Shown: positions 1 through 16,530 of the stretch, piece after piece | Numbering within the stretch: position 1 is the first letter of the stretch | Layout: each line of letters opens with the position of its first letter | Assembly (NCBI GenBank): GCA_965267575.1 | Contig: OZ254086.1 | Location: forward strand, 384,001 to 448,000 | Source: Calditrichales bacterium | Lineage (GTDB): Bacteria > Calditrichota > Calditrichia > Calditrichales > J004 | Length of the DNA: 64,000 nucleotides | Reading direction: 5' to 3' | Notes under the pieces: generated by a model | What the model was told of the DNA's origin: nothing | The model's database searches: none | Seen by the model: the letters and a program-made list of their open reading frames with translations, nothing else | Program-made: the position numbers and the translations under genes

Positions 1-412
1 CCGCCAAAACGGAATGCGCCACCAATGTGGCCAGGCCACGGTCGGTATCCTCATCGCCGGTGTTAGGGTTGTAAAAGCCCATTTTCTGTGGCAGCTTGTA
101 CGCGTCGTTCAGGCCCTGCGGGAAAACGTCGCCTTCAATTTGCAGGCGCCCGTCAGATACCCAGTTGAAATAGTTTGCCGCAGCGATGATCTGATCTTTG
201 AAGTAGGTGCGGTCGTGTGGCGCGGGGTCAATAGCAAACGGCTCGGTAGTCACCGTATCAATCATGAATAAGCCGTTGCCGGTGGTCAGTTCATTGCTGT
301 CTTCCTGAAATTCCACGCGCAAAGCGGCAATGCGCAATGTGGTTGGAGTCTGGGCAAACAGGGACGGGACGAACGAAAAGAGCAGGAGCAGGAGCAGGTA
401 TTTTTTTATCAT
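1..412 (-). CDS. Secreted protein, N-terminal part only (runs off the left edge); resembles the N-terminus of M6/immune-inhibitor-A-type metalloprotease proteins
   Basis: Not in the ORF track. Hand translation from ATG at 412 gives MIKKYLLLLLLFSFVPSLFA-QTPTTLRIAALRVEFQEDSNELTTGNG...PHDRTYFKDQIIAAANYFNWVSDG. It has a signal peptide and is open to position 1. No catalytic motif lies inside the window. Confidence 0.6.
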   Translation of the reverse strand, partial: MIKKYLLLLLLFSFVPSLFAQTPTTLRIAALRVEFQEDSNELTTGNGLFMIDTVTTEPFAIDPAPHDRTYFKDQIIAAANYFNWVSDGRLQIEGDVFPQGLNDAYKLPQKMGFYNPNTGDEDTDRGLATLVAHSVLA

Positions 413-446
413 CAGAAAATCTGTTTAATCCTAATAGTACTTCCGC

Positions 447-484
447 AAAATAAGAAAGGGAAGTCCGGCGGGCGGGCTTCCCTT
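447..484 (-). terminator. Intrinsic terminator-like hairpin after porV
   Basis: Inverted repeat aagggaagtccg/cgggcttccctt at 456-484, followed on the minus strand by TCTTATTTT. Confidence 0.65.
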
Positions 485-493
485 AAACGGTTT

Positions 494-1585
494 TTAGAAT
501 TTGATGGATAACGAAAAACGCATTGTATCGGCCAGCGGGCTCTCTTCGTTGTCAGAGATATAGCCGAAGTCAAAGCCAAAAATATCATAAACGAGACCGG
601 CGCCAAAGGTCAGGAACTGGCGTCCGCCGTTGAAGGGCGGGTCGGCTTCATAAAAATAACCGGTACGCAGCGCGATCAGGTTGCCGTACCAGTATTCGGC
701 GCCAAAGCTGTGTGTTACTTCTTTCCAGCGTCTTTCCGCGTCACCTTTAACCCAGCTACTCCAGAGAGCGGCGGTCACAAAGTTCTCGGCCTTTGTGCCT
801 TCACGTCTGTAAAGCGGCTTTGTGGCGTCATAAATAAGTGTTATGCGATTGAATTCATCGTCCAGCACTTTATAGGCCAGACCTACACGCAGGTTGGTTG
901 GCAGCGGGTCGGCCTGAGCATCATCGTTATAAGCGACAGCCGGTCCAAAGTTGGAAAGGTTCGCGCCAACGCGCAGTTTGTTCTGAAAAATATCATAGTC
1001 CGGTTGCCACAATACGCCCAAATCAAGGGCGAAAGCCGTTGCCTGTCCGTTGGTCTGTTCGGCGCCCACCTGGATGTTTTGCGGTGCCAGGTTACTCTGG
1101 ATGATTTTAAGATTGACACCAAGACCTAGGTTTTCCTGCATCTTTGTAGAGTATGATAAGGTTATGGCGTATTCCTTCGCTTCAAAGTCGCCAAGGATAT
1201 TGCCGTTTTCGTCGGTATTAGTAATTTTGCCAAGGTTGAGGTAGGTAAGACTTGCGCCAAGCATACCCACATCTTCTACATAATAACGGGCAGCCAGGTA
1301 ATCATAAAACAGATCGTCAAAATTAAACTGGGGCAGCCATTTGGCATGCATCAGTGAAATTTCACCGGGCTTGTCCGTTTCGGGATCTTCATACTGGAAT
1401 GCCAGGCCTGCCGGGTTCCAGTAAATTGCTGTCGCGTCTGTGGCCAAAGCAACGCCGCCTTCGCCCATGCCGCCGGCTTTTGCGCCAGGGGCAATTTGCA
1501 GAAACTGGACCGCTGCCGTGCTCTGTGCCAATAGATTGGCGGAAAATGCCAATACAACTGCCATCGCCAATGATAAACGCTTCAT
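494..1585 (-). CDS. porV: PorV-family T9SS outer-membrane shuttle (FadL-like beta-barrel)
   Basis: Signal peptide; FLQIAPGAKAGGMGE, AIYWNPAGLAF and LPTNLRVG motifs; C-terminal Phe; AAGGAGG RBS. Confidence 0.88.
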   Translation of the reverse strand: MKRLSLAMAVVLAFSANLLAQSTAAVQFLQIAPGAKAGGMGEGGVALATDATAIYWNPAGLAFQYEDPETDKPGEISLMHAKWLPQFNFDDLFYDYLAARYYVEDVGMLGASLTYLNLGKITNTDENGNILGDFEAKEYAITLSYSTKMQENLGLGVNLKIIQSNLAPQNIQVGAEQTNGQATAFALDLGVLWQPDYDIFQNKLRVGANLSNFGPAVAYNDDAQADPLPTNLRVGLAYKVLDDEFNRITLIYDATKPLYRREGTKAENFVTAALWSSWVKGDAERRWKEVTHSFGAEYWYGNLIALRTGYFYEADPPFNGGRQFLTFGAGLVYDIFGFDFGYISDNEESPLADTMRFSLSIKF

Positions 1586-1600
1586 TTTCTAACCTCCTTA

Positions 1601-1650
1601 AAAATAAAAAACCGGTTAAATGGAAAGGCACCTTTCACACTTAACCGGTT
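1601..1650 (-). promoter_or_regulatory. Hairpin plus U-tract directly upstream of the porV RBS
   Basis: Minus strand reads AACCGGTTAA-GTGTGAAAGGTGCCTTTCCAT-TTAACCGGTT-TTTTATTTTT-AAGGAGG. Confidence 0.55.
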
Positions 1651-1852
1651 AATTCTCGGGCAGACATATTAAGCCGTTTGCTAAAGGTAGCGCTTTCCGC
1701 TATCGATTTTCAAAAATTCAACAGTAAAAACAATTCCTTTAACAAATGACTTATATGCTATGCTCCCAGTTTTTTGCAGGCCTTGAATATATAGATGCCT
1801 ATTTTGTATGTCAAGTCCTAAAAACGACGTCCCGCCTTTATAGTTCCGCTCT

Positions 1853-2248
1853 TCAAACGCCGCGTAAATGTCTTAATAATGCGCGTGGCGGACGTATCGC
1901 TTTATTCTCGGTATTCATAAATGTATGAAGTGAAAATCCTTCGCAGATTTTTTCATCCTTTTCATTCAAAACCACATACTCAAAACGAAATTTCGCACCG
2001 GACCCGGTCAGCTTCACTTCGATGGTCAGCAGATCATCGAACTGCGCGTAACGTATAAAACGCGCAAATACTTCCAGCACGGGCATCAGGTAGCCGTCTT
2101 TCTCTAGCCTGGCGTAAGAAAAGCCCTGCGCCTTCAGCAAATCTATGCGTGCATGTTCAAACCAGACAATGTAAGCCGAGTGATGAGCAAACTGCATCTG
2201 ATCCGTTTCGGCATAGCGAACACGAATCTGGCAGCGGTGAGTGATCAT
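1853..2248 (-). CDS. Acyl-CoA thioesterase, YbgC/4HBT family
   Basis: RVRYAETDQMQFAHHSAYIVWFEHAR hot-dog-fold motif; 131 aa. Confidence 0.88.
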   Translation of the reverse strand: MITHRCQIRVRYAETDQMQFAHHSAYIVWFEHARIDLLKAQGFSYARLEKDGYLMPVLEVFARFIRYAQFDDLLTIEVKLTGSGAKFRFEYVVLNEKDEKICEGFSLHTFMNTENKAIRPPRALLRHLRGV

Positions 2249-2253
2249 GCCGT

Positions 2254-3216
2254 CTATTCTTCCCAGGCGCCCATGACACTGAATTTTTTGTGGCGCTGTT
2301 CTATCAGCTTGTCCGGTGAAAGCGGCATAAGCTGCTTTAGTTGCTTTACAATCGCTTCTTTGACGTGTTTGGCGGACATCTCGTAGTCAACATGTGCCCC
2401 GCCCTGCGGTTCCTTGATCACCTCGTCGACGATCTTAAGTTTTTGCAGATCCGGCGCTGTTACCTTCATGGCCTCTGCGGCCTGCGGTGCTTTGGCGGCA
2501 TCGCGCCATAAAATCGCGGCACAACCTTCCGGACTGATTACCGAATACCATGAATTTTCCATCATCAGGATACGGTCGCCAACCCCGATACCAAGCGCGC
2601 CACCGGAAGCCCCTTCACCAATGATTACGCAAATGATTGGTACCGGAAGCCGGGCCATTTCCAGCAGGTTACGGGCAATAGCTTCCGCCTGACCGCGCTC
2701 TTCCGCACCAAGGCCCGGATAAGCGCCCGGCGTATCGATTAGCGTAAGTACCGGCTTGTTAAATTTCGCGGCCAGCTTCATAACACGCAGCGCTTTACGG
2801 TAACCCTCGGGATTCGACATCCCGAAATTGCGCATTAAATTGCTTTTAGTGTCGCGACCTTTTTGCTGGCCCACAACCACCAGAGAATATTTATCAATGC
2901 GTGCCAAGCCTGTAATTACGGCGTTGTCATTGGCAAAACAACGATCGCCATACAATTCTTCAAAATAATCCGTTATACGGTGGATATAGTCCAACGTGTA
3001 GGGGCGCTGGGGATGACGCGCCAGTTGCACGCGCTGCCATCGGGTAAGATTGGCATAGATCTGCTTGCGCAGCTCAGCCGCTTTGCGCTCCAGCCTTTTA
3101 ATGTCGTCATCCATGTTGATGCCGGTTTTGGCCGTGTAATCACGCATCTCGCTGATCTTTTCTTCCAGCTCAACAACCGGTTTCTCAAATTCCAGTACAA
3201 ATCGGGTTTGTGCCAT
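2254..3216 (-). CDS. accA: Acetyl-CoA carboxylase carboxyltransferase alpha subunit
   Basis: [52 protein letters not shown]. Confidence 0.97.
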
Positions 3217-3225
3217 CGGATATCC

Positions 3226-3951
3226 TTACAGTTTTCCTGTCATTCCCATGAAACGAAGTTTCCAGATCATGAATACCGCCTCCCACATAATTTTTTTGGA
3301 AAGCTTGGAAACTCCATATACGCGGTCTATAAAAATAATAGGTATTTCCCGGATACGAAAACCTTTTTTCCAGGCGCGGTAACTCATCTCGATCTGGAAG
3401 GCGTAGCCGTTTGAACCAACCTGGCTGAAATCCAGCGCTTCCAGGACTTCGCGACGGAAGCATTTAAAGCCGCCCGTGGCATCCTGCACGGGCATACCGG
3501 TTATAACCCGCGTGTACACATTCGCAAAATAGCTGAGCAACAACCGCCGTAAAGGCCAGTTTACCACGTTTACGCCTTTAATGTAGCGCGATCCCAGTAC
3601 AAGGTCATAGTTCTCAATAGCCTCAAGAAACTTGGGAATTTCCTTGGGATCATGGGAAAAGTCAGCATCCATTTCAAAGATAAATTCATAGCCGCGGGCC
3701 AGCGCGTATTTAAATCCTGCCAAATAGGCACTGCCCAGCCCCATTTTGCCGGGACGCTCCAATAAATGAATATGCGGATTGTTTTCCTGCAAACCTTTAA
3801 CGATCTGCCCGGTCCCGTCAGGTGAATTATCATCCACAAACAGGATATGAACGTCCTTCTGGTAGCGGGCAATCTCCTGCACCAGCCGCGGAACGTTTTC
3901 TTTTTCGTTATAAGTGGGGACTATTATCAGGGCTTTGGATGCGTCAACCAT
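3226..3951 (-). CDS. Polyprenol-phosphate mannose synthase (Dpm1/Ppm1-like GT2)
   Basis: IVPTYNEKEN, VDDNSPDGT, EMDADFSHDP, DATGGFKCFRR, GYAFQIE. Start placed at ATG 3951; the ORF track extends to 3963. Confidence 0.88.
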   Translation of the reverse strand: MVDASKALIIVPTYNEKENVPRLVQEIARYQKDVHILFVDDNSPDGTGQIVKGLQENNPHIHLLERPGKMGLGSAYLAGFKYALARGYEFIFEMDADFSHDPKEIPKFLEAIENYDLVLGSRYIKGVNVVNWPLRRLLLSYFANVYTRVITGMPVQDATGGFKCFRREVLEALDFSQVGSNGYAFQIEMSYRAWKKGFRIREIPIIFIDRVYGVSKLSKKIMWEAVFMIWKLRFMGMTGKL

Positions 3952-4849
3952 TCTGGGCTTCACTCAATTTCTTTTTTAATCGTGTTAATCCGGATCCGAT
4001 ATCGCCCGGCTCCCAGTTGATCCTGTTAACCAGCTTATCTATCACAAATGTGGAGATCATCGGGCGCGGGGCTTTTTGCTGAAGACCGGAAGACATAATG
4101 CGTTCAATCAGGTTTTTATCCAGGTTAAATACTTCTGCTACCTTTCGCGCAAAATCGTAGCGGCTGGCCGTCTCCGACCCGCTGATGTGGAACAGCCCGT
4201 ACTCCCTGTTTTGGATGAGCTTGAGCAGGCTGACGCTCACGTCCTCGGCGTATGTGGGATTACCTATCTGATCGGCCACAACGCGAATCGGTTTTTTCTG
4301 GCTGAGCCGGCTTATCACCCAGGTGGCAAAATTAAGCCGCACATCGCGTGCAAAGCCATATAAAACCTGCGTGCGCGCTATAATGTGCTCCAGGGCTGAT
4401 GAACTGACAATGTTTTCAGCAGCCATTTTACTGCGCGCGTAGTAGCCCAGCGGGTTAACATCATCCTGCTCGCGATAGTCCCCTTTTGTGCCATCAAAGA
4501 CATAGTCCGTTGAAATTTGCACAAACAACGGCTTAAAATCCTGCACCACGTCTACAATATTCTCAACCCCGCGGACGTTGGTGTTCCAGCATAACTCTTT
4601 TTCTTCTTCACTGCCGTCCACATTCGTATAGGCGGCGGCGTTGATAATAATTTCCGGTTGCACATCCGTAAGCAGATCGCTCATCTGCTGGCGGCTTATC
4701 ATATCCACCTGGCGGTATTCCACCTCTTTCTGCAAAAATTTTGGCCCGGCCGAACGTGACGAGGCGATCACCGAAAAATGCGGTGCAAAGTGTTCCACCA
4801 GGTTTTGCCCCAGCAGACCATTGGCACCAAATATCAGCAGCTTCTTCAT
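3944..4849 (-). CDS. rfbD: dTDP-4-dehydrorhamnose reductase
   Basis: GANGLLG Rossmann motif, NAAAYTNVD, ISTDYVFDG, YARSK (YxxxK), DQIGNPT. Confidence 0.92.
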   Translation of the reverse strand: MKKLLIFGANGLLGQNLVEHFAPHFSVIASSRSAGPKFLQKEVEYRQVDMISRQQMSDLLTDVQPEIIINAAAYTNVDGSEEEKELCWNTNVRGVENIVDVVQDFKPLFVQISTDYVFDGTKGDYREQDDVNPLGYYARSKMAAENIVSSSALEHIIARTQVLYGFARDVRLNFATWVISRLSQKKPIRVVADQIGNPTYAEDVSVSLLKLIQNREYGLFHISGSETASRYDFARKVAEVFNLDKNLIERIMSSGLQQKAPRPMISTFVIDKLVNRINWEPGDIGSGLTRLKKKLSEAQNG

Positions 4850-4883
4850 GTGAGATTAAGTCCATCCATGTTGAAAAATTTTA

Positions 4884-4912
4884 AATTTAAAGAAATAGCC
4901 AAAACAGCGCAA
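4884..4912 (-). promoter_or_regulatory. Putative sigma70-type promoter for rfbD
   Basis: TTGCGC-N17-TAAATT. Confidence 0.45.
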
Positions 4913-4940
4913 TGAAGTCCAAAAACGCTTTTGCCCTGAC

Positions 4941-5981
4941 CTAATTTTCTTCAGCCTCGTCAGCAAAGCGAAAAGTTGATGCAATCACTTCAAGCTGGTC
5001 GAGAAAAGGCTTTTTCTTTTTGTCGGGCGCCATTACCGCTATATCGAGCATATAAAAAGCGTTTTCATCCGGCTTGTGGATGGCGTACATACGAAAAGGT
5101 CCGCCCACAAACAGAGAATCGTTTTTCCAGGTGCCCACCATTTTGCGTGTTCTTTCACCGTGAAAATCAACGATCGATACATAGCTTTCTTCGGTTACTA
5201 CGGAATCACCGGCATAATATTTATAGGTCATAGCATTCCTGATGGCTATCAGGCTGTCCTTGGTCAGCATACTGCTGTCTGCCTCCACACGCCAGATAGA
5301 AAGCCAGCGGTCCGGGTTTATGCGCCTTAGCCAGACATACTTGTTCTCCGGGTTTTGTGTAGCCAGAAAATAGTCGTGTTGTACGCGCACGGCGTAGCCG
5401 TATTCGGAGGCCAGGTACTCTTCCATATCTTCCTGTTCGGCCCTTTCGTACATGCTTTTCTTCAGCCGGGCAAAATACTTTTCTTCAAATGTATTGTAGA
5501 TTTCATCCTTGACCCGTTGAAAATTGCCGTTGAACTCTGCGGCTGTCGGCGCCATCATGAACATGGCAATCTGCCCGCGGGCAAAAAGGTCATCCTGGAA
5601 AAAATAGAAAGCGCGGTTTTGATTTACCTGGTCGATAAACTGCTGCGGCAGGCTTTGCAACAGGTAGTCATTCACTTCAGTGCCGGGCTGCGTAGTGCCT
5701 ACAAACAAAATATTCATGCGCTCATTAAGCCCGTTAAGATCGGATAAGGGATGCCATTGCAGCTCAAAGCGCCTTTCCGCGCGCGGGGTGTAGATAAAAT
5801 TGTTAAAGGTAAGTTCCACATCTTTGCCCACCTGCTCCCACAAAACAGAGTCGGCAAACACATAAATGCCATCAGGCACACCGAGTGCCTCAGGTTTATA
5901 ATCGCACGCGAAGCCGGTTAACAGTATGAGCAGCAGGCCGGTTAGGCCGGTTTTAGAAATCTTCTTTAATGGCTTTAACAT
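4941..5981 (-). CDS. DUF4837-like lipoprotein
   Basis: From ATG 5981: signal ending in a GFAC lipobox; C-terminal GTWKNDSLFVGGPF...APDKKKKPFLDQLE pattern typical of DUF4837. Confidence 0.7.
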   Translation of the reverse strand: MLKPLKKISKTGLTGLLLILLTGFACDYKPEALGVPDGIYVFADSVLWEQVGKDVELTFNNFIYTPRAERRFELQWHPLSDLNGLNERMNILFVGTTQPGTEVNDYLLQSLPQQFIDQVNQNRAFYFFQDDLFARGQIAMFMMAPTAAEFNGNFQRVKDEIYNTFEEKYFARLKKSMYERAEQEDMEEYLASEYGYAVRVQHDYFLATQNPENKYVWLRRINPDRWLSIWRVEADSSMLTKDSLIAIRNAMTYKYYAGDSVVTEESYVSIVDFHGERTRKMVGTWKNDSLFVGGPFRMYAIHKPDENAFYMLDIAVMAPDKKKKPFLDQLEVIASTFRFADEAEEN

Positions 5982-6936
5982 CTTTAAGTCCTTTGCTTTT
6001 ACGTTGTACTGCAAAAAGCACCGCTCCCCACAAAGAAATGACCATGGGGACAATCACATTCAATAAAGCCAGGCTGATTGAGGCCGCGGAAGAGACGCCC
6101 ATTTTACCCAGCAAAAACACAAAGCCACCGTCACGCAAACCCAGCCCGTTGATGGATGGCAGCATGGTTAAAAGAAACGTAACCGGCACCACAAGAAAAA
6201 GATAGAGCAGCTCCACTTCGATGCGCAAGGCCAGGCACAGCGCGTAATTCATCAGCACGATGGCGGCCTGCGAGAGCACGGAAAGAAAAAAGACCCAAAC
6301 GAAAACGCGGCGCCGGTCGCGCAGAAAATGCATCGCTTCAATCAGTTTGTTGATTTTTTCGCCCAGGTTGAGCAGGGTAAATTTGTCAAAAATGCGCAGC
6401 AGCCACAAAACCGGACGTTCCCGCGTTATCATCACAAAAAAAGTAATAATGGCAATTAACAAAAAGACAGAGACGAGGAGAATGCGCTGATCCTGGAAAT
6501 AATGCGAGACGTAATAAAGTGATGTGATTGCCAGAAACAGGGTGGCCGCAATACCCATGATGCGTTCGATGATCACGGAAGCGAAAGCAGCGGTTCGATT
6601 GTCCGAATCGGCGGCGGCGCTATATATGCGGACAATATCACCGCCGATACTGGTGGGCAGAAAGTTGTTAAAAAACAATCCGACGAGGTAAAAGCCATAA
6701 AGCCGGGAGGATGAAATCCCCACTTCATATTGATGTAGCAGACTTCGCCAGCGCACGGTCATCAGACCAATACTGACCATGGTTATCGCTATCGCCAGCA
6801 ACAGGAAGGGCAGGCCCTCGCTGCGGATGACATTACCAAGCACATTTACAATCTGCTGCGGATCCGACGTGATAACCAGGTAGCCAAGCAACCCGACCGA
6901 TATGAGCACCTTGGCCAGATTTTTTAACCAACGCAT
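5953..6936 (-). CDS. Lysylphosphatidylglycerol-synthase TM-domain / UPF0104 flippase-like membrane protein
   Basis: Polytopic; RWRSLL, FFNNFLPTSIGGDIVR, LPSINGLGLRD. Confidence 0.85.
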   Translation of the reverse strand: MRWLKNLAKVLISVGLLGYLVITSDPQQIVNVLGNVIRSEGLPFLLLAIAITMVSIGLMTVRWRSLLHQYEVGISSSRLYGFYLVGLFFNNFLPTSIGGDIVRIYSAAADSDNRTAAFASVIIERIMGIAATLFLAITSLYYVSHYFQDQRILLVSVFLLIAIITFFVMITRERPVLWLLRIFDKFTLLNLGEKINKLIEAMHFLRDRRRVFVWVFFLSVLSQAAIVLMNYALCLALRIEVELLYLFLVVPVTFLLTMLPSINGLGLRDGGFVFLLGKMGVSSAASISLALLNVIVPMVISLWGAVLFAVQRKSKGLKDVKAIKEDF

Positions 6937-6940
6937 CTGC

Positions 6941-9592
6941 TTATTCTTCTTGGTTCATCCGCCTTTTCAACATCTGCAGCATTCTGTTTGCTTCGCTGTC
7001 CGCAGGATTCATCTTAAGCCATCTTTCAAGTGCGCTGATTGCCTTTTCGGTCTCGCCGCTCATTTCGTAGGCGGTGATCATTCCGCCCAAAAGATCGGGA
7101 TTGTCGGGCATGTTTCCGGCGGCCTTTTCAAATAGCTGGGCGGCCCGGTCAAATTCATTTATACCCAACAAATACCGCCCAATGGACGCAATATGCCGCT
7201 GGTTGGAGGGATTGTCGATTACGGTCCCGATGTGGCTGGTATCAACGGCGATCTTAAAAGCGTTGTAATAGTTGCGTAAAACGCTGTTGGTCCATGGAAT
7301 GGTTTCCGCGGGCATTTGGGCATCCAGGCTATCCAGAACCGTCGCCAGTTTGTCTTTATTGCGCTCGAAGCGGGCATAATATTCTGCTAGTTGTATAAAG
7401 CCTGTGCGGTAATTCTGCAATAAACCGACGATACTGGGATTAAAATAAACATCCGGATTGTCAAGGTTGCGATATTGATAGCGCTCCAGGAGATTCAGTT
7501 GCAGCATATCGGGGCCGACATCCCAGTTTTTAAACGGCACCAGTCTCAGAACCAGCCCTTCCATGCGCATGTAATTGGAGAGCTCACCCACCAGGTTGGA
7601 TTGCGGAACGGTTGTGGCAAAATAAACCGGCTTCGTCCAGCGGTTGGCGGTAAGAATATTAAGAATCATGTAATCCTGCGTGCGCAGCAGATTGTATTGC
7701 TGGAAGCGGATGGTAGGCGGCACCTTAAAGGTAATTTCCGTCGGGAGATTCATGATATTGACGCTGCTGAAATTTTCCTTGTACTGGCGCAGCGCGCTGT
7801 CCGCGACGGACTGCGGCACTTTCAGCGAAACCTCCTGCTCCTGCCAGGGCACGGGACGGATTTGTCCCAGCATGGCGTCGCTGACGCGCATAGGCACTTT
7901 GGGCTCCATATCACGCAACTGTTCGATATACCAGTCGGTGTTGAGCAGGCTAAGGTTGACGATGCGGATATCCGTACGGATGCCTTCTACTTCCTGCAGG
8001 TACCAGAGCGGGAAGGTATCGTTATCACCATTCGTGAACAGAATGGCGTTGGGCTCACAGGATTGCAGCATATTGTAGGAATAATCCCAGGCTACGAAAT
8101 TGCCGCTGCGATCGTGAATTTCATAATTCTTGGCCATCATGTTGACCGGGCTGATAACAAGCAGCACAACGAGCACTCCTGCCATGACCGGGGCTGCCAG
8201 TGCTTTTGTCTTGTCTTTCATAAAATCGCGAATCAGGTCAATGGTGCCGGCAAAACCTAAACCGATCCAGATGGAGAAGGCGAAGAAGCTTCCCACATAA
8301 CTGTAGTCCCTTTCACGCGGCTGTGGATCGGGTTGGTTCAGATACAAAATAATTGCGAGGCCCGTGGCAAAGAATAAGGCCAGCACCGAGAGCGCGTGCT
8401 TGGGATCGCGCCTGAAATGAAAGATCATACCAATCAGACCCAGCAAAAAAGGAATCCCGTAAAAATTAAAATTATGCCAGCTGCCGGTGTCCTCGTTAAA
8501 GCCGACAAACTGCCACATGAAGTAGCGGATGTACATGTGGTTAACCTGATAGCTCCAGAAGAAGTCCCAGGTGGAGCTGTACTGATTGCCGTTTGGCGAG
8601 CTTTGCCATACACCGCGACGATCCATGAAGTCGTGTTCGCCGTACTGCTCGCGGTTGATATACTTCATGAAATTTTCAACGTTCTCGGGATTGTTTTCGT
8701 CGATGTTGGGATCCAGGCCGGAACGGATATAGATGGTGCCGTAGCTGGAATAGCCGATCATGATCAGTGTGATGGAGAGAAAAATAAAGCTAAGCAGGTG
8801 GCGGTGGTTGGCAACGGCCCACCAGGCAACGCCGGCAAAAAGGGCAAAAACAAGAAACAACGCGAAAAAGCTGATTTCTGCGACATGCGGCAAATGCTTT
8901 ACAATACCGGGATATATGGTAAACATTATCACAACTGTGATGGCCACCATGATGCCAAAGGTGCGCGGTGTAAAGGTATAGCGCTTGTAATAATAGATCA
9001 TCGCTACGAACGGCAGCGCCAGTACGTTGAGCAGGTGCACGGCAATGGCCAGACCGATCAGGTAGGAGATCATCAGCAGGTATTTTTCGTTGTTTGTTTC
9101 GTTGGATTTTTCAGCCCATTTGAGAGACAGCCAAACCAGCAAAGCGGTAAACAGCATAGAGGGTGCATACACTTCCGCTTCCGAAGAGTTAAACCAGAAG
9201 CTGCGGGTAAAAGCGTAAGTAAGCGAACCAAGAATGCCGGAAAACACGGCCAGCATCCAGTCTTCTTTTGTTTCCAGCTTGCCCTTCCATTCACGCACCA
9301 GATGTACAATGACCAGGTAAAGCAGCATGATCGTGATAGAGCTGGAAAGAACGGAAATCATGTTGACACGGAAAGCTATATCTTCATGGAAAGGCAACAT
9401 CGAGAAAATACGGCCCACAAGCAGGTATAGCGGCGCTCCCGGAGGATGGGGTACTGCCATTTTGAAGCTGGTGGCAATAAACTCGCCGCAGTCCCAGAAC
9501 GAAACCGTGGGAGCTACCGTCATTGTGTAGATAATCGTTGTAAATACAAAAATGGCCGCGGCCGTCACGCGGTTAATCTGATTCCAATTCAT
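6941..9592 (-). CDS. DUF2723 / TMEM260-like GT-C membrane glycosyltransferase with C-terminal TPR
   Basis: APTVSFWDCGEF, VPHPPGAPLYLL, EAEVY, QPRERDYSYVGSF, FTNGDNDTFPLWY; multiple TM helices; TPR-like C-terminus. Confidence 0.88.
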   Translation of the reverse strand: MNWNQINRVTAAAIFVFTTIIYTMTVAPTVSFWDCGEFIATSFKMAVPHPPGAPLYLLVGRIFSMLPFHEDIAFRVNMISVLSSSITIMLLYLVIVHLVREWKGKLETKEDWMLAVFSGILGSLTYAFTRSFWFNSSEAEVYAPSMLFTALLVWLSLKWAEKSNETNNEKYLLMISYLIGLAIAVHLLNVLALPFVAMIYYYKRYTFTPRTFGIMVAITVVIMFTIYPGIVKHLPHVAEISFFALFLVFALFAGVAWWAVANHRHLLSFIFLSITLIMIGYSSYGTIYIRSGLDPNIDENNPENVENFMKYINREQYGEHDFMDRRGVWQSSPNGNQYSSTWDFFWSYQVNHMYIRYFMWQFVGFNEDTGSWHNFNFYGIPFLLGLIGMIFHFRRDPKHALSVLALFFATGLAIILYLNQPDPQPRERDYSYVGSFFAFSIWIGLGFAGTIDLIRDFMKDKTKALAAPVMAGVLVVLLVISPVNMMAKNYEIHDRSGNFVAWDYSYNMLQSCEPNAILFTNGDNDTFPLWYLQEVEGIRTDIRIVNLSLLNTDWYIEQLRDMEPKVPMRVSDAMLGQIRPVPWQEQEVSLKVPQSVADSALRQYKENFSSVNIMNLPTEITFKVPPTIRFQQYNLLRTQDYMILNILTANRWTKPVYFATTVPQSNLVGELSNYMRMEGLVLRLVPFKNWDVGPDMLQLNLLERYQYRNLDNPDVYFNPSIVGLLQNYRTGFIQLAEYYARFERNKDKLATVLDSLDAQMPAETIPWTNSVLRNYYNAFKIAVDTSHIGTVIDNPSNQRHIASIGRYLLGINEFDRAAQLFEKAAGNMPDNPDLLGGMITAYEMSGETEKAISALERWLKMNPADSEANRMLQMLKRRMNQEE

Positions 9593-9645
9593 GAACGGGT
9601 ATTCCTTTTAGAATAATACATCAGGTTCGTTGGTAAAAGAAGATA

Positions 9646-9674
9646 AAGCTACAGCATCCGCTAAATCATAGCAA
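9646..9674 (-). promoter_or_regulatory. Putative sigma70-type promoter for the DUF2723 gene
   Basis: TTGCTA-N17-TAGCTT. Confidence 0.4.
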
Positions 9675-9720
9675 CCTTTTTAGGTTTACTTACCGTCAAA
9701 ACACCATAAACAGCGCCGAC

Positions 9721-10788
9721 TCAAAAAGGTTGCTTTTTTTCAGGGTAACGCCGGAAGCGGCGCACACAACTGTATGGCATCTGGCGCCGCGCAAAATGAT
9801 CGATGACGATGCTGCCGCGGTACATGTTTTTTATGATCGCGCGGTCGGAAACGGTTCGCATTTTTTGCACGGCACGGCGCTTTTTCATTATAAACAGCGG
9901 GTGGGAAAAGACAAACCACAAGGCGTCCAGTACAGCCCTCGCGCGTTTGCCGCTCCAGACGATCGTGTCGGCCAGAACGGTGGCCATTTCGAAAAGGACA
10001 CGCAGCGGAAAAAACACAAAAAGCAGCGGGAATGAATAATTCTTTAGCATCATAATCAGGTTGTTGCGGTGATTCAGGTACATTTTGCGCTGGTTGTCGC
10101 TGCGCAGCGTGTAGCCGGAATAGTGATATATCCAGGTGTCGTAGGTTACCACGTTGCGGTACCCGGCAATCTGGGCCCGCCAGTTCAGATCGATCTCTTC
10201 CTGGTGTGCAAAAAAGTCTTCATCCAGCAAGCCGATTTTGTCGGTTACGCTTTTGCGCAAAAGCAGCGCGCAGCCGGAAGTCCAGAAGACCGTTTTTTCA
10301 AGGTTGTCATATTGCCGCTTGTCTTTTTCCACGGTATCAAAAATGCGCCCGCGGGCAAAGGGATAACCAAACAGGTCCATCTCGCCGCCGGCGCCGCCGG
10401 AGTAGTCAAAATAGCTGTGGTCCTGAATGGAAAGGATTTTGGGCTGCACGCAGGCAATACGCTCGTCGGCAGCTATAACCCGGTGCATCACCTCCATAAA
10501 AGCCGGCGGCATCACGGTGTCGTTGTTCAACAGCAGCACAAAAGGCGTTTTGGCGATGCGGATGCCCTGGTTACAGGCGCCGGCATAGCCCAGGTTGTCA
10601 GCGTTTTCGATCAGCTCCACATCGGGGAAATTTTCCAGTACCATGCGCTGGCTGCCATCCGTTGAGCCGTTGTCGATGACGATGGTGTGGAAACGCGGCG
10701 TCTTGTTCTTCAGCAAGGATTGCAGGCAATCCCGCAAAATATCAAGCCCGTTGTAATGCGGTATAATGACGGTAATTTCTGTTTTCAT
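9721..10788 (-). CDS. GT2 glycosyltransferase (WbbL/RfbF-like)
   Basis: VIIPHYN, IDNGSTDGS, NLGYAGACN, LLNNDT, FFAHQEEIDL. Confidence 0.88.
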   Translation of the reverse strand: MKTEITVIIPHYNGLDILRDCLQSLLKNKTPRFHTIVIDNGSTDGSQRMVLENFPDVELIENADNLGYAGACNQGIRIAKTPFVLLLNNDTVMPPAFMEVMHRVIAADERIACVQPKILSIQDHSYFDYSGGAGGEMDLFGYPFARGRIFDTVEKDKRQYDNLEKTVFWTSGCALLLRKSVTDKIGLLDEDFFAHQEEIDLNWRAQIAGYRNVVTYDTWIYHYSGYTLRSDNQRKMYLNHRNNLIMMLKNYSFPLLFVFFPLRVLFEMATVLADTIVWSGKRARAVLDALWFVFSHPLFIMKKRRAVQKMRTVSDRAIIKNMYRGSIVIDHFARRQMPYSCVRRFRRYPEKKQPF

Positions 10789-10804
10789 TTTTTGCGTTCA
10801 TCTA

Positions 10805-10929
10805 TCCAGGTTTCATGTGTTAAAATCTGTATAGTCCCGTCCGGTACGCGGGATTCGACCTCTCCCGTCGGCAGATCCCGGTGTTGGCTTGTTCGCCAAA
10901 CCGGGATAACACGTATGCAAAAGCCAGGA
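10805..10929. other. Unidentified multi-stem structured intergenic element (candidate ncRNA, leader or miniature repeat element)
   Basis: Nested inverted repeats: gtgtta/taacac, atctg/cagat, gtcccg/cgggat, cgac/gtcg, tcccggt-g-ttggc/gccaa-accggga. Confidence 0.5.
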
Positions 10930-10941
10930 CACAGGAAAGTC

Positions 10942-10975
10942 ATTCGTAATTCCTTAATTCGTAATTTGTAATTGA
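10942..10975. repeat. Short heptamer-like tandem repeat
   Basis: attcgta-attcctta-attcgta-atttgta-attga. Confidence 0.6.
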
Positions 10976-10979
10976 TTAA

Positions 10980-13079
10980 TCAGCTAATGTTGAACATGGC
11001 CAGTCGGTCACGGTATTCACGGCTGATCGTTTTGCGTATGCCGGCATTTTCAGCGGCACGCAGCTGCGGGTCATGATCGACCAGCTCAAAGGCATCACGG
11101 CGGGCCTGCTCCAGAATGTGCCGGTCACGCACGGGATGCGCCAGACGGAAAAGCGGCACACCACTTTGTCGCGTTCCAAACAGGTCGCCCCAGCCGCGCA
11201 GCTCCAGGTCTTTTTCGGAGATCACAAAGCCGTCGTTGGTCTCGGTCATCGTGCGGATGCGCGCCCGGGCCTGCTCGCCCACGTTGGCCGGCGTTTTCAG
11301 TATACAGTACGATTGCTTCGCTCCACGGCCCACACGACCCCGCAATTGGTGCAGCTGCGAGAGCCCGAAACGCTCGGCGTGCTCGATCAGCATGATGGTA
11401 GCATTGGCCACATCCACGCCCACTTCCACCACCGTTGTGGTTATAAGCATGTGGATATCGCCATTGGCGAAGGCGCGCATAACGGCCTCTTTGTCTTCGC
11501 TTTTCATGCGCCCGTGCAGCAATCCCAACTTGTACTTTTTAAAAGGCCCGGCCGATAAACTGTTAAAGGCATCGGTTGCCGCCTTAAGATCGCTCTTTTC
11601 ACTCTCTTCCACCAGCGGAAAAACCATGTAGACCTGCTCGCCGGCATCAAGGCGTTCGCGCAAAAAAGCATATATACGCTGCGCCTGATCGTCCTTGCGC
11701 CAGACCGTTCGTACAGGCTTGCGGTTTTTGGGCAGCTCATCAATCACCGAAACCTCAAGTGAGCCGTAGGCGGTAAGGGCCAGCGTTCGCGGGATGGGCG
11801 TGGCCGTCATCACCAGCACGTCCGGTTGTTCGCCTTTACCCATCAGCACGCCGCGCTGCAATACGCCAAAACGGTGCTGCTCATCGATGATCACCAGGCC
11901 GAGCCGCGCAAACTGAACCGTTTCTTCCAGCAGGGCGTGTGTGCCCACCACCAGGTTTACCTGCTCGTCACGGATCTGCGCTTGCAGATAGGCGCGTTCC
12001 TTTTTGCTTTTGCCGCCGGTTACCAGTGCTATTTTTACTCCGAGCTGCCCCAGGAAACGCGATGTATTGATAAAGTGCTGCTCGGCCAGAATTTCCGTCG
12101 GCGCCATCAGCGCCACCTGGTAGCCATTGTCAATGCAGACCAATGCCGCCATCATCGCCACCAGTGTTTTACCCGCGCCCACATCACCCTGCAGCAGACG
12201 GTTCATCGGCGAACTTTCTTTCATATCCCGGCGGATTTCGCGCATAACGTTTTTTTGCGACTGCGTCATTTCAAAAGGCAATTTTTTGTAGAGCTCGTTT
12301 AACCGCGGACTCTGTTTATCAAAGGAAATGCCCAGCGGTTTATTGCGCACATGATAACGCTGAAGGGCAAACAGCAGCTGCAGGTAAAAAAATTCTTCGT
12401 ATATAAAACGGTAGCGCGCCCGCTCCAGCATATCGACGCTTTCGGGCAGGTGCATCTGGCGATAAGCCTCATGAAGGCCCAAAAAGTGGCGCTCCCGGAT
12501 AAGCGAATCCGGAAGTACCTCTTTGCATACCTGCGGTACTGTTTTAAATAAATCACGGAAAATGCGCCGGAAGACATAGGAGTTTACCCCGGCCTTTTTC
12601 AACGCATCGCTGCCGGGGTAAAGCGGCAGCACCTTGCCGGTGTTGACCATTCCGTCGAGGTCACCGTGATCAAGTATGTCAAAATCGGGGTGCGTCATCT
12701 GGTAGCCGCGGTAGAAGGTGACTTTGCCGGAAAGCGCCACCCAATCGCCCACTTTGAAAATATTTTTAAAAATGTGGATCGCATTGAACCAGACAGCCTC
12801 GAGCATGCCTTTGCCATCGCTGATGACGATATAAAACAGGGCTTTACGCAGACGCTTGATGCCGGCGGCTTCCACCTTGCCGACGACGGTCACTTCTTCA
12901 TCGGTGGCCTGCAGGGCGTCCAATCCGATAATTGTGCTGCGGTCCAGGTAGCGGCGCGGGCAATAGTTTAACAGCGCGTCAAAGCTGTCAATGCCTGCTT
13001 TTTTCAGGGCTTCGGCGCGCTTGGGGCCAATGCCTTTGAGATAGGTGATCTCAGGTTGCGGCTGCTCGTTTGCGGACAT
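10980..13079 (-). CDS. recG: ATP-dependent DNA helicase RecG
   Basis: RLLQGDVGAGKT, MAPTEILAEQH, DEQHRFG, MTATPIPRTL, LHQLRGRVGRG. Confidence 0.97.
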   Translation of the reverse strand: MSANEQPQPEITYLKGIGPKRAEALKKAGIDSFDALLNYCPRRYLDRSTIIGLDALQATDEEVTVVGKVEAAGIKRLRKALFYIVISDGKGMLEAVWFNAIHIFKNIFKVGDWVALSGKVTFYRGYQMTHPDFDILDHGDLDGMVNTGKVLPLYPGSDALKKAGVNSYVFRRIFRDLFKTVPQVCKEVLPDSLIRERHFLGLHEAYRQMHLPESVDMLERARYRFIYEEFFYLQLLFALQRYHVRNKPLGISFDKQSPRLNELYKKLPFEMTQSQKNVMREIRRDMKESSPMNRLLQGDVGAGKTLVAMMAALVCIDNGYQVALMAPTEILAEQHFINTSRFLGQLGVKIALVTGGKSKKERAYLQAQIRDEQVNLVVGTHALLEETVQFARLGLVIIDEQHRFGVLQRGVLMGKGEQPDVLVMTATPIPRTLALTAYGSLEVSVIDELPKNRKPVRTVWRKDDQAQRIYAFLRERLDAGEQVYMVFPLVEESEKSDLKAATDAFNSLSAGPFKKYKLGLLHGRMKSEDKEAVMRAFANGDIHMLITTTVVEVGVDVANATIMLIEHAERFGLSQLHQLRGRVGRGAKQSYCILKTPANVGEQARARIRTMTETNDGFVISEKDLELRGWGDLFGTRQSGVPLFRLAHPVRDRHILEQARRDAFELVDHDPQLRAAENAGIRKTISREYRDRLAMFNIS

Positions 13080-13082
13080 GCC

Positions 13083-13793
13083 TCAGGAGGGATTGGTTTT
13101 GGTTTTCTGGCCGGCAATGCGACCGTCATCCAGTTCGATGATGCGATGCGCCTGCTCGGTCATATGCTCGTTGTGCGTTACGATCAACAGCGTATGTTCA
13201 AGCTCTTTGTTTAACTGTAACAGCAGATTGTATAGCGCCTCGCCGTTGCGTTTATCGAGGTTGCCGGTAGGCTCATCGGCCATAACAATTTTGGGTTTGT
13301 TGACGACGGCACGGGCTACGGCTACGCGTTGCTGCTCGCCGCCGCTCATTTCGCGCGGTTTGTGGTCCAGCCGGTGCGACAATCCGACAAGATCCAGTAT
13401 ATGCCGGGCGTATTCCTGTTTTTCCCGTTCCTTTCCGTTGGGCCAGATCATCGTCGGGATCAGCACGTTTTCCAGCGCCGTAAACTCCGGCAGCAAATGA
13501 TGAAACTGGAAAACAAAGCCCACGGTCAGATTGCGCACACGGGCTTTTTCCACCTGGTTAAGCTGCGCCACATCCTGTCCGCCGATGGAAATCGCGCCGC
13601 TGTCGGCCTCATCCAGCAGGCCCAGCACATGCAGCAGAGTACTTTTACCCACGCCGGACGGCCCCATGATAACCGCCACATCGCCCTGCGGAATGGTCAG
13701 ATCGATGCCTTTGAGCACTTCCACCGCCTGCGGTCCGTTGCGATAGCTTTTGCGCAGATTCTCGGCCTTAATAGCCCATTGATTGTTATTCAT
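13083..13793 (-). CDS. lolD: Lipoprotein-releasing ABC transporter ATPase
   Basis: GPSGVGKST, FQFHHLLPEFTALENV, SGGEQQR, ADEPTGNLD; adjacent to lolC/E. Confidence 0.9.
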   Translation of the reverse strand: MNNNQWAIKAENLRKSYRNGPQAVEVLKGIDLTIPQGDVAVIMGPSGVGKSTLLHVLGLLDEADSGAISIGGQDVAQLNQVEKARVRNLTVGFVFQFHHLLPEFTALENVLIPTMIWPNGKEREKQEYARHILDLVGLSHRLDHKPREMSGGEQQRVAVARAVVNKPKIVMADEPTGNLDKRNGEALYNLLLQLNKELEHTLLIVTHNEHMTEQAHRIIELDDGRIAGQKTKTNPS

Positions 13794-15021
13794 ATCGGAT
13801 GGCCTCCACCGGAATCAGGCGCGAAGCTTTGTACGCAGGATAAACCGAAGCAACCAGGCTGAGCGCCATGGAGATGCTGCCAATGGAAATAAAGTCCAGC
13901 AGCCGCAGCTTAACAGGCAGCGCATCGATCAGGTAAACATCCGAGGGCAGCGATATCAGGTGATACTCCAGTTGTAGCCAGGCCACGCCATAGCCGATGG
14001 CGCACCCAAGCACTGTGCCAATAATGCCCACCAAAAGGCCTTCGAACAGAAATATCTTCATAATACTCGCAGAGGTAGCGCCCATTGATTTCAGGATGCC
14101 GATTTCACGGGTCTTGTCCATCACCACCATCACCAGCGAGCTTATAATGTTAAAAGCGGCCACCATGATAATCAGGCTGAGAATTACAAATGCGCCCCAC
14201 TTCTCGATCTCCATCCAAGAGAAGAGTGAGCGGTGCATCTCAAACCAGGAGAGCGCCACATAGGGATAGCCCAGTTGCTCGGCGATGGCATTGCCTACTT
14301 CACCGGCCTTTTCATAATCATTCAGCTTGATCTCAATCCAGGTTACGCCGTCCATACCAAACAGCTTTTGCGCGTCTTCGATAGAGACATAGGCAAAAAC
14401 CTTGTCATACTCGTAATAGCCAAACTCCACCAGCCCGGCCACATAAAACTGCATGATGCGCGGCTGCGTGAAAAAACCGCCTTCCTTCGGCATGGACCAG
14501 ACCGAGACGATATCACCGATGCCCATGGCTAAAAGCCCATCAGCCAGGTAGCGCCCAAGTACGATGCCCGGCAACTTGCGCCCCTCGATCATCTTCTCCG
14601 AGAAGTCCAGCTCACCGGATACTATGTTAGCGGTAATTTCGGTTACCTCATCCGCCGTATTTTTGTCGATTGCTTTGATGCCTGCGGGACGCTGGTAGCT
14701 GGATGATTTGATCATCGCCTGCTCGTTAATGGCGGGCGAAGCGCCAACGACCTCTTTGTGAGAACGGATTATGTTCAAAACAGAATCGGGCTTTTCGATC
14801 GGTTTGTTGAAATACTTGCGGATACGCACATGGGCGTCAGCCCCGATCAGCCGCGAGCGCACTTCCTGTTCAAAGCCGTTCATCACCGAAAGCACCAGGA
14901 TCAGCGCCGTCACACCAATCATGATGCCCGCAATCGAAACATAGGTAATAATGGAGATAAAGCCGGTTTTACGCTTGGCTCCGAGATAACGGCGGGCTAT
15001 AAAATATTCAAAAGATGCCAT
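13786..15021 (-). CDS. Lipoprotein-releasing ABC transporter permease, LolC/E family
   Basis: IARRYL, LSVMNGFE, VAAFNIISSLVM, EIGILKSMGA, YPAYKAS. Confidence 0.9.
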   Translation of the reverse strand: MASFEYFIARRYLGAKRKTGFISIITYVSIAGIMIGVTALILVLSVMNGFEQEVRSRLIGADAHVRIRKYFNKPIEKPDSVLNIIRSHKEVVGASPAINEQAMIKSSSYQRPAGIKAIDKNTADEVTEITANIVSGELDFSEKMIEGRKLPGIVLGRYLADGLLAMGIGDIVSVWSMPKEGGFFTQPRIMQFYVAGLVEFGYYEYDKVFAYVSIEDAQKLFGMDGVTWIEIKLNDYEKAGEVGNAIAEQLGYPYVALSWFEMHRSLFSWMEIEKWGAFVILSLIIMVAAFNIISSLVMVVMDKTREIGILKSMGATSASIMKIFLFEGLLVGIIGTVLGCAIGYGVAWLQLEYHLISLPSDVYLIDALPVKLRLLDFISIGSISMALSLVASVYPAYKASRLIPVEAIRYE

Positions 15022-16524: not shown

Positions 16525-16530
16525 AAACTC

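Follow-up and report, generated by a model that had tools for sequence, protein, structure and literature searches.

A TMEM260-type GT-C glycosyltransferase and a DPM1-type synthase in a Calditrichota genome: candidate components for O-mannosylation of exported proteins

We analyzed a 64,000-nucleotide stretch of DNA from a Calditrichales bacterium (GCA_965267575.1, contig OZ254086.1, positions 384,001 to 448,000 of the forward strand), which we call the window and number from its first letter. A preliminary description of this DNA had placed a protein O-mannosylation system, built around a homologue of human TMEM260, at positions 3226 to 10788. We found that six co-oriented minus-strand genes fill this segment. 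The open reading frame (ORF) list, the translations, Pfam and NCBIfam agree on all six genes that the description had named:

3226 to 3963, minus strand: GT2 glycosyltransferase of the DPM1 type, 245 residues (PF00535, E 3.5e-34)
3944 to 4849, minus strand: RmlD, dTDP-4-dehydrorhamnose reductase type (TIGR01214, 231.7 bits against a cut-off of 224.05)
4941 to 5981 (longest ORF to 6053), minus strand: DUF4837 lipoprotein (PF16125, E 2.5e-45)
5953 to 6936, minus strand: UPF0104, MprF-flippase-like (LPG_synthase_TM) membrane protein (PF03706, E 5.1e-38)
6941 to 9592, minus strand: DUF2723/TMEM260-like GT-C protein with a C-terminal TPR region, 883 residues (PF11028, E 4.6e-65)
9721 to 10788, minus strand: second GT2 glycosyltransferase, 355 residues (PF00535, E 4.8e-26)

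These genes are closely spaced. The first GT2 and RmlD genes overlap by 20 nucleotides, the UPF0104 and DUF2723 genes are 4 nucleotides apart, and 128 nucleotides separate DUF2723 from the second GT2. The dense packing reaches into housekeeping genes, with AccA starting 9 nucleotides past the 245-residue GT2 and a thioesterase gene 5 nucleotides further on. Because the packing runs past the borders of the six-gene segment, the six are a subjective cut from a longer co-directional array. A scan of positions 1 to 17000 was uninformative: promoter-like sites numbered 16 where 18.0 were expected and terminator-like sites 16 where 21.0 were expected, and the consensus used may be ill suited to this phylum. 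One 4.73-Mb contig makes up the genome, which holds one copy of PF11028.

We asked how closely the protein encoded at 6941 to 9592 resembles TMEM260, the one characterized member of its family. PF11028 matches residues 34 to 206 at 219.2 bits, against a gathering cut-off of 24.2. A search with the single sequence found human TMEM260 (PDB 9rql) at E 2.7e-21, through residues 12 to 197 in the membrane core and 483 to 563 in the periplasmic part. With a profile of 30 homologues, the match improved to E 2.3e-37 and covered TMEM260 residues 29 to 228 (membrane core) and 356 to 482 (luminal domain). The closest homologues of the protein bear the names Calditrichaeota or Calditrichaceae in their sources.

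The active-site residues agree with this relationship. According to the accessible text of the TMEM260 structure preprint (10.64898/2026.03.17.711096), the active site of the enzyme is split: D52 and H67, in the first luminal loop, hold the mannose of the donor, a donor-loading loop contains R264 and Y267 and helix 10 contains R355, and D441 in the luminal Rossmann-like domain serves as catalytic base. The same text reports that D52, H67 and D441 are essential by mutagenesis, and that the TPR region captures an extended acceptor peptide and is sufficient for peptide recognition. In a gap-free HMMER alignment, D34, H49 and D523 of the bacterial protein pair with D52, H67 and D441, and D523 sits in a G-D-N-D-T motif. 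The WDxGE motif that the preliminary description had pointed to is present in the translation and alignment as W33-D34-C35-G36-E37. We then measured conservation in 269 homologues aligned to the family profile, of which 120 are close and 149 represent clusters, at identities down to about 33%. Among the homologues having a residue at the column, D34 is kept in 256 of 258, H49 in 258 of 258 and D523 in 267 of 267. R426 and R428 shortly precede the second of the aligned stretches, and either is a candidate for the counterpart of R355 in transmembrane helix 10 (TMH10).

An AlphaFold2 model built from the homologue alignment (mean pLDDT 87.7, pTM 0.88) shows roughly 13 membrane helices, a Rossmann-like domain on the periplasmic side and a TPR region at the C-terminus. 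The fold is that of GT-C enzymes, with Z 23.5 to yeast STT3 (429 residues aligned, root-mean-square deviation 5.0), 22.8 to ArnT (439 aligned), 21.9 to ALG12 and about 21 to Pmt1, Pmt2 and Pmt4; the library compared does not include TMEM260 (9rql), so that residue equivalence to TMEM260 comes from sequence alignment only. Foldseek matches to GT-C structures ranged from E 2e-6 to 1e-4. The TPR region was recognized by TPR_19 (E 8.6e-10, residues 813 to 873) and by fold matches to TPR proteins at Z of about 14 over residues 757 to 883. Thus, the profile match, the model and the retained acidic residues bear out the earlier claim of a TMEM260 homologue with a GT-C fold. We conclude with high confidence that the enzyme belongs to the TMEM260 family of GT-C glycosyltransferases, depends on a polyprenyl-phosphate sugar as donor and keeps the split active site intact.

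The acceptor could be a protein, as for TMEM260, or it could be a non-protein component of the envelope such as lipid A, the lipopolysaccharide (LPS) core or another glycolipid or glycan, modified in the manner of ArnC and ArnT, with the TPR region serving assembly or regulation. The latter is the main rival to a protein acceptor, and we consider it unlikely. It draws on the place of ArnT among the best structural matches and on the weak TPR matches, which include TPR proteins of the LapB type from LPS assembly. Against this, the homology to TMEM260 extends into the luminal Rossmann-like domain and includes the invariant base aspartate, whereas ArnT is without such a domain.

The donor would come from the 245-residue GT2. 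Of the proteins with solved structures, the one nearest to it is the Dol-P-Man synthase of Pyrococcus furiosus (5mlz), matched over residues 8 to 236 at E 1.6e-33 with the D-A-D motif aligned. It is far less similar to ArnC (E 3e-14) and to the GtrB-like sll0501 (1e-6), and no membrane helices are apparent in it. ArnC is still a clear relative, which fits transfer to a non-protein acceptor as well. A ManC-like GDP-mannose pyrophosphorylase gene (332.6 bits) lies 18 kb upstream of the window. Judged by its homology, the GT2 is a candidate polyprenyl-phosphate hexose synthase, and the sugar is probably mannose.

We identified the UPF0104 protein as a candidate flippase of the lipid-linked sugar from its family matches: PF03706 scored 131.7 bits against 33.4, and the "flippase-like" TIGR00374 scored 79.5 against 43.2. 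When the UPF0104 and DUF4837 sequences were compared with solved structures, no match was found at E up to 0.1. In the consulted portion of Makarova et al. 2015 (PMC5898192), UPF0104 is described in archaea as the C-terminal domain of AglD glycosyltransferases with a predicted flippase activity, and conserved neighbourhoods join UPF0104, AglD-like GT2 and PMT/STT3-like GT-C proteins. Four longer fused relatives of the UPF0104 protein comprised two GT4 fusions, one with a sulfatase/phosphodiesterase-type domain and one with PAS. None of these four was a fusion of GT2 with UPF0104, which is weak evidence.

It is also conceivable that UPF0104, perhaps with DUF4837 and the 355-residue GT2, makes and flips a glycosylated lipid of the membrane, as proposed for GpgSDF of Pseudomonas, in a process that has no connection with the GT-C enzyme. 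We regard this as very unlikely. It would agree with the fold that the C-terminal domain of DUF4837 shares with LpqN and DcrB, which are lipoproteins tied to envelope lipid biogenesis. It would also agree with the fusions of UPF0104 relatives to GT4 (2/4) or to a sulfatase/phosphodiesterase-type domain (1/4), and with GpgF, a UPF0104 protein that a 2025 paper, in the text available, proposes as the glucosaminyl-phosphatidylglycerol flippase (PMC12713373). However, the same text gives the flippase activity of GpgF itself as unverified, a deacetylase or GT4 is absent from the cluster by Pfam, and the UPF0104 gene, 4 nucleotides from the GT-C gene, travels with it in KSB1 and two other lineages.

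We then determined how widely the enzyme and the synthase occur. The GT-C ortholog is present in 41/41 Calditrichota relatives, and PF11028 was found in all 151 genomes drawn evenly from Bacteroidota, a sample that evidently includes Chlorobia-type genomes. A synthase ortholog (E at most 1e-55) was found in 150 of the 151 and is single-copy in all but one, which has two matches; identity was 47 to 66% among the matches listed. Five of five further related genomes also carry the ortholog, and other GT2s there reach at most 34% identity. Among 14 control genomes, PF11028 and PF16125 occurred only in Bacteroides thetaiotaomicron, which is not one of the nine with PMT_2. Both genes, for the enzyme and for the synthase, thus belong to the core of Calditrichota and Bacteroidota, where they are near-universal and occur in single or low copy number. 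Such universality in these diderm phyla would also be compatible with a core role at the outer membrane, as expected if the acceptor were not a protein.

Two observations concern gene copies. One to three PF11028 matches per genome are common among the 151 Bacteroidota genomes, and the paralogues might differ in acceptor. TMEM260-like genes are paired, in tandem or close by, in a KSB1 locus (L053:9995-15423) and in three Bacteroidota loci. Separately, a PMT_2 (ArnT-like) GT-C gene lies outside the window beside nucleotidyltransferase-like and SDR genes (C1:4281683-4284440), possibly a second lipid-linked sugar module.

If exported proteins are glycosylated in this organism, their sequences might carry an excess of the acceptor site. 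The general O-glycosylation sequon of Bacteroidota is D-S/T-[AILVMT], as given in the accessible part of a review (PMC12871550). We counted this motif across the whole genome in 3701 ORFs of at least 100 residues, called by a crude longest-ORF rule. By a simple rule based on signal peptides and hydrophobicity, 956 were classed as exported, 1755 as cytoplasmic and 990 as membrane or other proteins, and the expectation was taken from each protein's own composition. Exported proteins contained 1989 sequons against 1360 expected, a ratio of 1.46 (bootstrap 1.37 to 1.57), and cytoplasmic proteins contained 1309 against 1330, a ratio of 0.98 (0.93 to 1.03). For DS[AILVMT], the ratios were 1.65 and 0.93. 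Five control motifs, which replaced D by E or N, used other third residues, reversed the motif or put A/G in place of S/T, gave exported/cytoplasmic ratios of 0.90 to 0.99.

The excess depends on the third residue, with observed-to-expected ratios in exported proteins of 2.27 for L, 1.37 for V, 1.33 for T, 1.29 for I, 1.03 for A and 0.90 for M. The D-S-L tripeptide is 2.27-fold over-represented in exported proteins compared with 1.04 in cytoplasmic ones. Under a first-order Markov expectation the excess persists, at 1.32 in exported proteins against 1.08, with controls at 0.98 to 1.00. It peaks in small proteins, from 1.80 at 80 to 200 residues down to 1.16 above 800. We rejected GDSL lipases or giant repeat proteins as its cause: G-D-S-L makes up 27 of 1955 sites, 1946 of the 1955 contexts are distinct, and the excess is largest below 400 residues. 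Mild flanking preferences were also seen (P/A at -1, A/T/V at -3, Y/F at +3 and V/F at +4), which may represent a lineage-specific form of the sequon.

For comparison, we applied the test to samples of other genomes. A 1.2-Mb sample of Escherichia coli K-12 gave 1.04 (0.85 to 1.23) for exported and 0.99 for cytoplasmic proteins. An 800-kb Pedobacter sample gave 1.05 (0.90 to 1.22) and 0.85, with DS[AILVMT] at 1.15 against 0.69, and a 400-kb Chlorobia-type sample gave 1.26 (0.83 to 1.78), which is not significant, and 0.88. The excess in the Calditrichota genome, which is clear and has no counterpart in the E. coli negative control, is a first indication of protein glycosylation at D-S/T-x in this phylum. 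Set against a non-protein acceptor for the GT-C enzyme, it points to protein glycosylation in the genome and not to this enzyme in particular.

The other three genes of the segment are less readily placed. RmlD passes its equivalog cut-off narrowly. Its companions are elsewhere in the genome: RmlB scores 472.9 bits against 365.1, a divergent RmlA-like protein reaches 180.6 at best against a cut-off of 360.65, and a divergent RmlC-like protein reaches 32.8 against 155.75 in NCBIfam, yet 39.5 against 27 with PF00908. These RmlA/B/C-type genes are scattered on the chromosome, all far from the window. The second GT2 has a hydrophobic C-terminal region and only generic GT2 matches in the PDB and NCBIfam; against the rhamnosyltransferase model TIGR01556 it scored 54.1 bits, compared with 200.55. 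RmlD and the second GT2 are tied to the synthase, UPF0104 protein and GT-C enzyme by position only. Neither RmlD nor UPF0104 was found beside synthase orthologs of other lineages in nine loci, of which five span only about 1.5 kb per side.

In the DUF4837 protein, Cys26 after a hydrophobic leader is invariant in 21/21 aligned orthologs. Its model (pLDDT 92) has a flavodoxin-like N-terminal domain and a PsbP/Mog1-like C-terminal domain, the latter with Z 13.5 to 2xb3 (146 aligned, root-mean-square deviation 3.1) and further matches to MTC28, LpqN, Apa and DcrB. The model suggests a non-enzymatic two-domain periplasmic lipoprotein, and nothing in it points to catalysis. Four D-S-[LV] sequons occur in the lipoprotein, at residues 44, 242, 259 and 288, and D44 is at least 90% conserved, so it may itself be a glycosylation substrate.

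We next consider the setting of the six genes. The same co-directional minus-strand run contains the following flanking genes:

494 to 1585, minus strand: PorV (NF033710, 257.3 bits against a cut-off of 250)
1853 to 2248, minus strand: YbgC-type thioesterase (Pfam/NCBIfam)
2254 to 3216, minus strand: AccA (Pfam/NCBIfam)
Beyond the second GT2, minus strand: RecG, LolD, LolC/E and LysS (Pfam/NCBIfam)

The PorV-family outer-membrane protein at the end of the array is a sign that this Calditrichota genome encodes a type IX secretion system. Within Calditrichota, the order synthase-RmlD-DUF4837-UPF0104-DUF2723 is kept in 18 of 20 regions, the other two being cut by contig ends, and an ortholog of the second GT2 adjoins DUF2723 in 17 of the 20. 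However, AccA, the thioesterase, PorV, RecG, LolCDE and LysS are equally collinear in these 20 regions. Thus, within-phylum order says little about function, and we rejected it as an argument for an operon. The array of one Calditrichota relative stops at the TMEM260-like gene, and the second GT2 and RecG were not found in the rest of the 19.9-kb region, so that a local rearrangement is likely.

To cover related phyla, we scanned one genome per species; the scan found 709 relatives, and 78 loci were retained from it. These represent Calditrichaceae, KSB1, Neomarinimicrobiota, Ignavibacteria, Chlorobiaceae, Balneolales/Rhodothermales and many Bacteroidota orders. Partners were sought with profiles of the Calditrichota orthologs up to 10 kb on each side of DUF2723; many contigs are shorter, and 61 loci span at least 12 kb. 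The loci with each partner near DUF2723 were as follows:

UPF0104: 4 of 78 (Calditrichaceae, KSB1 and two other lineages)
DUF4837: 5 of 78
Synthase ortholog: 2 of 78
RmlD: 2 of 78
Second-GT2 ortholog: 7 of 78, including the four titled Neomarinimicrobiota

The order in the KSB1 locus is DUF2723-DUF2723-UPF0104-DUF4837. One further lineage has DUF2723-GT2-UPF0104-synthase-GT2-AccA, with a synthase of 58% identity, and another has DUF2723-UPF0104-DUF4837. In five other genomes checked, the synthase and DUF2723 are unlinked, and in four Chlorobia-type genomes they are 9 to 10 kb apart with unrelated genes between them. The conserved synteny that the preliminary description had made a test of its reading is therefore kept only in Calditrichota and a few neighbouring lineages. 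To call the six genes a "compact general O-glycosylation pathway" was an overstatement, because their layout is an arrangement of the Calditrichota lineage inside a collinear block of the core genome.

Other recurrent neighbours of DUF2723 were a HemN-like radical-SAM gene (9 loci), RecG (8), DUF1844 (7) and a GT9 heptosyltransferase (6). The small DUF1844 gene lies between RecG and the TMEM260-like gene in its seven loci, from KSB1, Neomarinimicrobiota and other lineages (one at L056:9573-9920), and there is none in the RecG-GT2-DUF2723 order of the window. LpxA and ROK adjoin DUF2723 in Chlorobiaceae, and the heptosyltransferase loci are of the Ignavibacteria type. Proximity to LpxA and to the heptosyltransferase is what a GT-C enzyme acting on LPS might show, but each of these LPS-gene neighbours is limited to one lineage.

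These gene arrangements also bear on whether there is any dedicated system here. The genes may simply belong to a long collinear core array, with the synthase feeding several GT-C enzymes, DUF2723 working independently, and RmlD and the second GT2 belonging to LPS or exopolysaccharide synthesis. We judge this improbable. The equal collinearity of the flanking housekeeping genes, with AccA only 9 nucleotides from the GT2, is in keeping with it, as are the unlinked or distant synthase and DUF2723 genes described above, the three PMT_2 GT-C genes in the genome and the scattered rml genes. However, UPF0104 with DUF4837 or with the synthase recurs beside DUF2723 in KSB1 and two other lineages where the flanks differ. 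Archaea offer a precedent for the trio of families, as far as the available text of PMC5898192 goes, and the synthase and DUF2723 are both present almost throughout the Bacteroidota sample, in 150 and 151 of 151 genomes.

The reading we prefer is that the synthase, the UPF0104 protein and the GT-C enzyme form a three-component periplasmic module that O-mannosylates exported proteins, and we assign it a probability of about 0.5. In the first step, as suggested by homology, the DPM1-type GT2 would load a hexose, most likely mannose from GDP-mannose, onto polyprenyl phosphate at the cytoplasmic face. The UPF0104 protein, to go by its family and adjacency, would move the lipid-linked sugar to the periplasmic leaflet. 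There the GT-C enzyme, whose fold and residues are in place, would use D34 and H49 to bind the donor within the membrane part. An extended polypeptide would lie against its Rossmann-like domain and TPR region, held by both, and D523 would act as the base that activates the Ser/Thr hydroxyl. The likely acceptors would be Sec-exported proteins with D-S/T-[AILVMT]. RmlD, DUF4837 and the second GT2 are lineage-specific neighbours and at most putative participants. The preliminary description had the cluster supplying donor, flippase and transferase: family and fold matches support these three as candidate assignments, and what did not hold is a conserved unit beyond Calditrichota and a few neighbouring lineages.

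Several observations weigh against O-mannosylation of exported proteins by this module. By fold, the enzyme is no closer to the protein O-mannosyltransferases than to STT3 or to ArnT, which modifies lipid A. The equivalents of TMEM260 R264 and Y267 fall outside the HMMER alignment, and R314 and Y317, which have the R-x-x-Y spacing and are kept in 263 and 261 of 267 homologues, are candidates only. The 245-residue GT2 reaches no NCBIfam equivalog cut-off (PpgS 63 against 370 bits, with AglJ, PgfS, ArnC and the Dol-P-hexose transferase far below), so that mannose is a sugar we infer. The genome also has three PMT_2 GT-C genes, which could use the same donor, and three Wzy_C genes, which are possible classical O-oligosaccharyltransferases or ligases.

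To these are added the collinearity of the housekeeping genes, the LPS genes beside DUF2723 in other lineages, and the partners found in only 2 to 7 of the 78 loci. Rhamnose extension is suggested by adjacency alone. DUF4837 is ruled out as an obligate partner: it was found in 28/61 sampled Bacteroidota genomes, compared with 151/151 for DUF2723, and many DUF2723 genomes do without it. In the sequon test both the gene calling and the signal-peptide rule are crude, the Bacteroidota positive control (Pedobacter) is weak, with an exported interval that includes 1, and the test does not link the sequon to the TMEM260-like enzyme. The sequon of TMEM260, Px6Px3Px2GGx3T, differs from D-S/T-x. Finally, our literature search found no tested function for any bacterial DUF2723 member, and no identified Bacteroidota O-mannosyltransferase or O-glycan transferase turned up in it.

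The distribution of the enzyme and the synthase bears on O-glycosylation beyond Calditrichota. In the accessible text of the 2025 review (PMC12871550), the core of the Bacteroidota O-glycan is hexose (mannose) and deoxyhexose (rhamnose), in agreement with the mannose linkage that the preliminary description had given, and deletion of the outer-glycan locus leaves the hexose and deoxyhexose. The same text states that the core-glycan flippase, oligosaccharyltransferase and ligase "remain undiscovered", remarks that the core pathway resembles eukaryotic O-mannosylation, and proposes that homologues be sought. We tentatively propose, as a possibility that we hold to be somewhat doubtful, that general O-glycosylation in Bacteroidota is initiated by the TMEM260-like GT-C enzyme together with the DPM1-type synthase. 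It would start as O-mannosylation of the eukaryotic kind, from polyprenyl-phosphate-mannose, and not as an en bloc transfer by an oligosaccharyltransferase. It would be older and wider than that phylum, with the same D-S/T-x sequon in Calditrichota and probably in KSB1, Chlorobia and relatives, and animal TMEM260 would be the eukaryotic branch of an ancient bacterial family.

The value of these findings lies in the enzyme-synthase pair, found in 151/151 and 150/151 Bacteroidota genomes, which makes a long-standing open question directly testable. In Bacteroidota and their relatives, the pair is a candidate for initiating protein O-glycosylation. Confirmation would link TMEM260, an enzyme of human disease (SHDRA syndrome), to an origin in bacteria and would open its mechanism to study in tractable bacterial models. 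The sequon statistics are the first indication that protein glycosylation of the Bacteroidota kind may operate in Calditrichota.

The proposed module shares features with several known systems. In the GtrA/GtrB/Gtr and ArnC/ArnEF/ArnT systems, a DPM1-type GT2 makes a polyprenyl-phosphate-monosaccharide, which is flipped by a small membrane protein and whose sugar a GT-C enzyme transfers outside the cytoplasm. The logic here is the same, and ArnC and ArnT are detectable relatives. The differences are that the candidate flippase is a UPF0104 protein and not GtrA or ArnEF, that the GT-C enzyme belongs to the TMEM260 family and has a lobe of the protein-binding type, and that the acceptor is probably a protein and not O-antigen or lipid A. 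In actinobacteria, a monoderm phylum, Pmt (GT39) and Ppm1 carry out polyprenyl-phosphate-mannose-dependent O-mannosylation of Sec-exported proteins. The activity proposed here, by a bacterial GT-C enzyme, would be of this kind. However, the GT-C family is another one: PMT/PMT_2 is not the best match, Pmt1, Pmt2 and Pmt4 resemble the enzyme at the level of the fold only (Z about 21), and in the actinobacterial Pmt there are no MIR domains replaced by Rossmann-like and TPR domains.

In the archaeal AglD systems, as the available text of PMC5898192 presents them, the same three families are associated and UPF0104 is likewise the predicted flippase. Here GT2 and UPF0104 are separate genes; the archaeal systems decorate N-glycans, and the GT-C enzyme there is not of the TMEM260 family. 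Points in common with Bacteroidota O-glycosylation are a cluster that has a mannose-type synthase and RmlD and, as an indirect statistical sign, the sequon excess in predicted exported proteins. As far as literature searches show, no glycoproteins of Calditrichota have been reported. The Bacteroidota model, in the portion of PMC12871550 consulted, has en bloc transfer by an oligosaccharyltransferase, whereas we propose stepwise O-mannosylation.

The closest comparison is with human TMEM260 itself (9RQL/9RQM/9RQN), the endoplasmic reticulum O-mannosyltransferase for IPT domains, of which a 2023 paper notes only "distant homologs in bacteria". The two share PF11028, the GT-C fold and the order of GT-C, Rossmann-like and TPR parts. 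The bacterial enzyme has about 13 membrane helices in the model compared with 11, and 883 residues compared with 707 to 729, and nothing about it implies a sequon of the IPT type. It resides in a bacterial membrane, so that its carrier would be of the undecaprenyl type rather than dolichyl.

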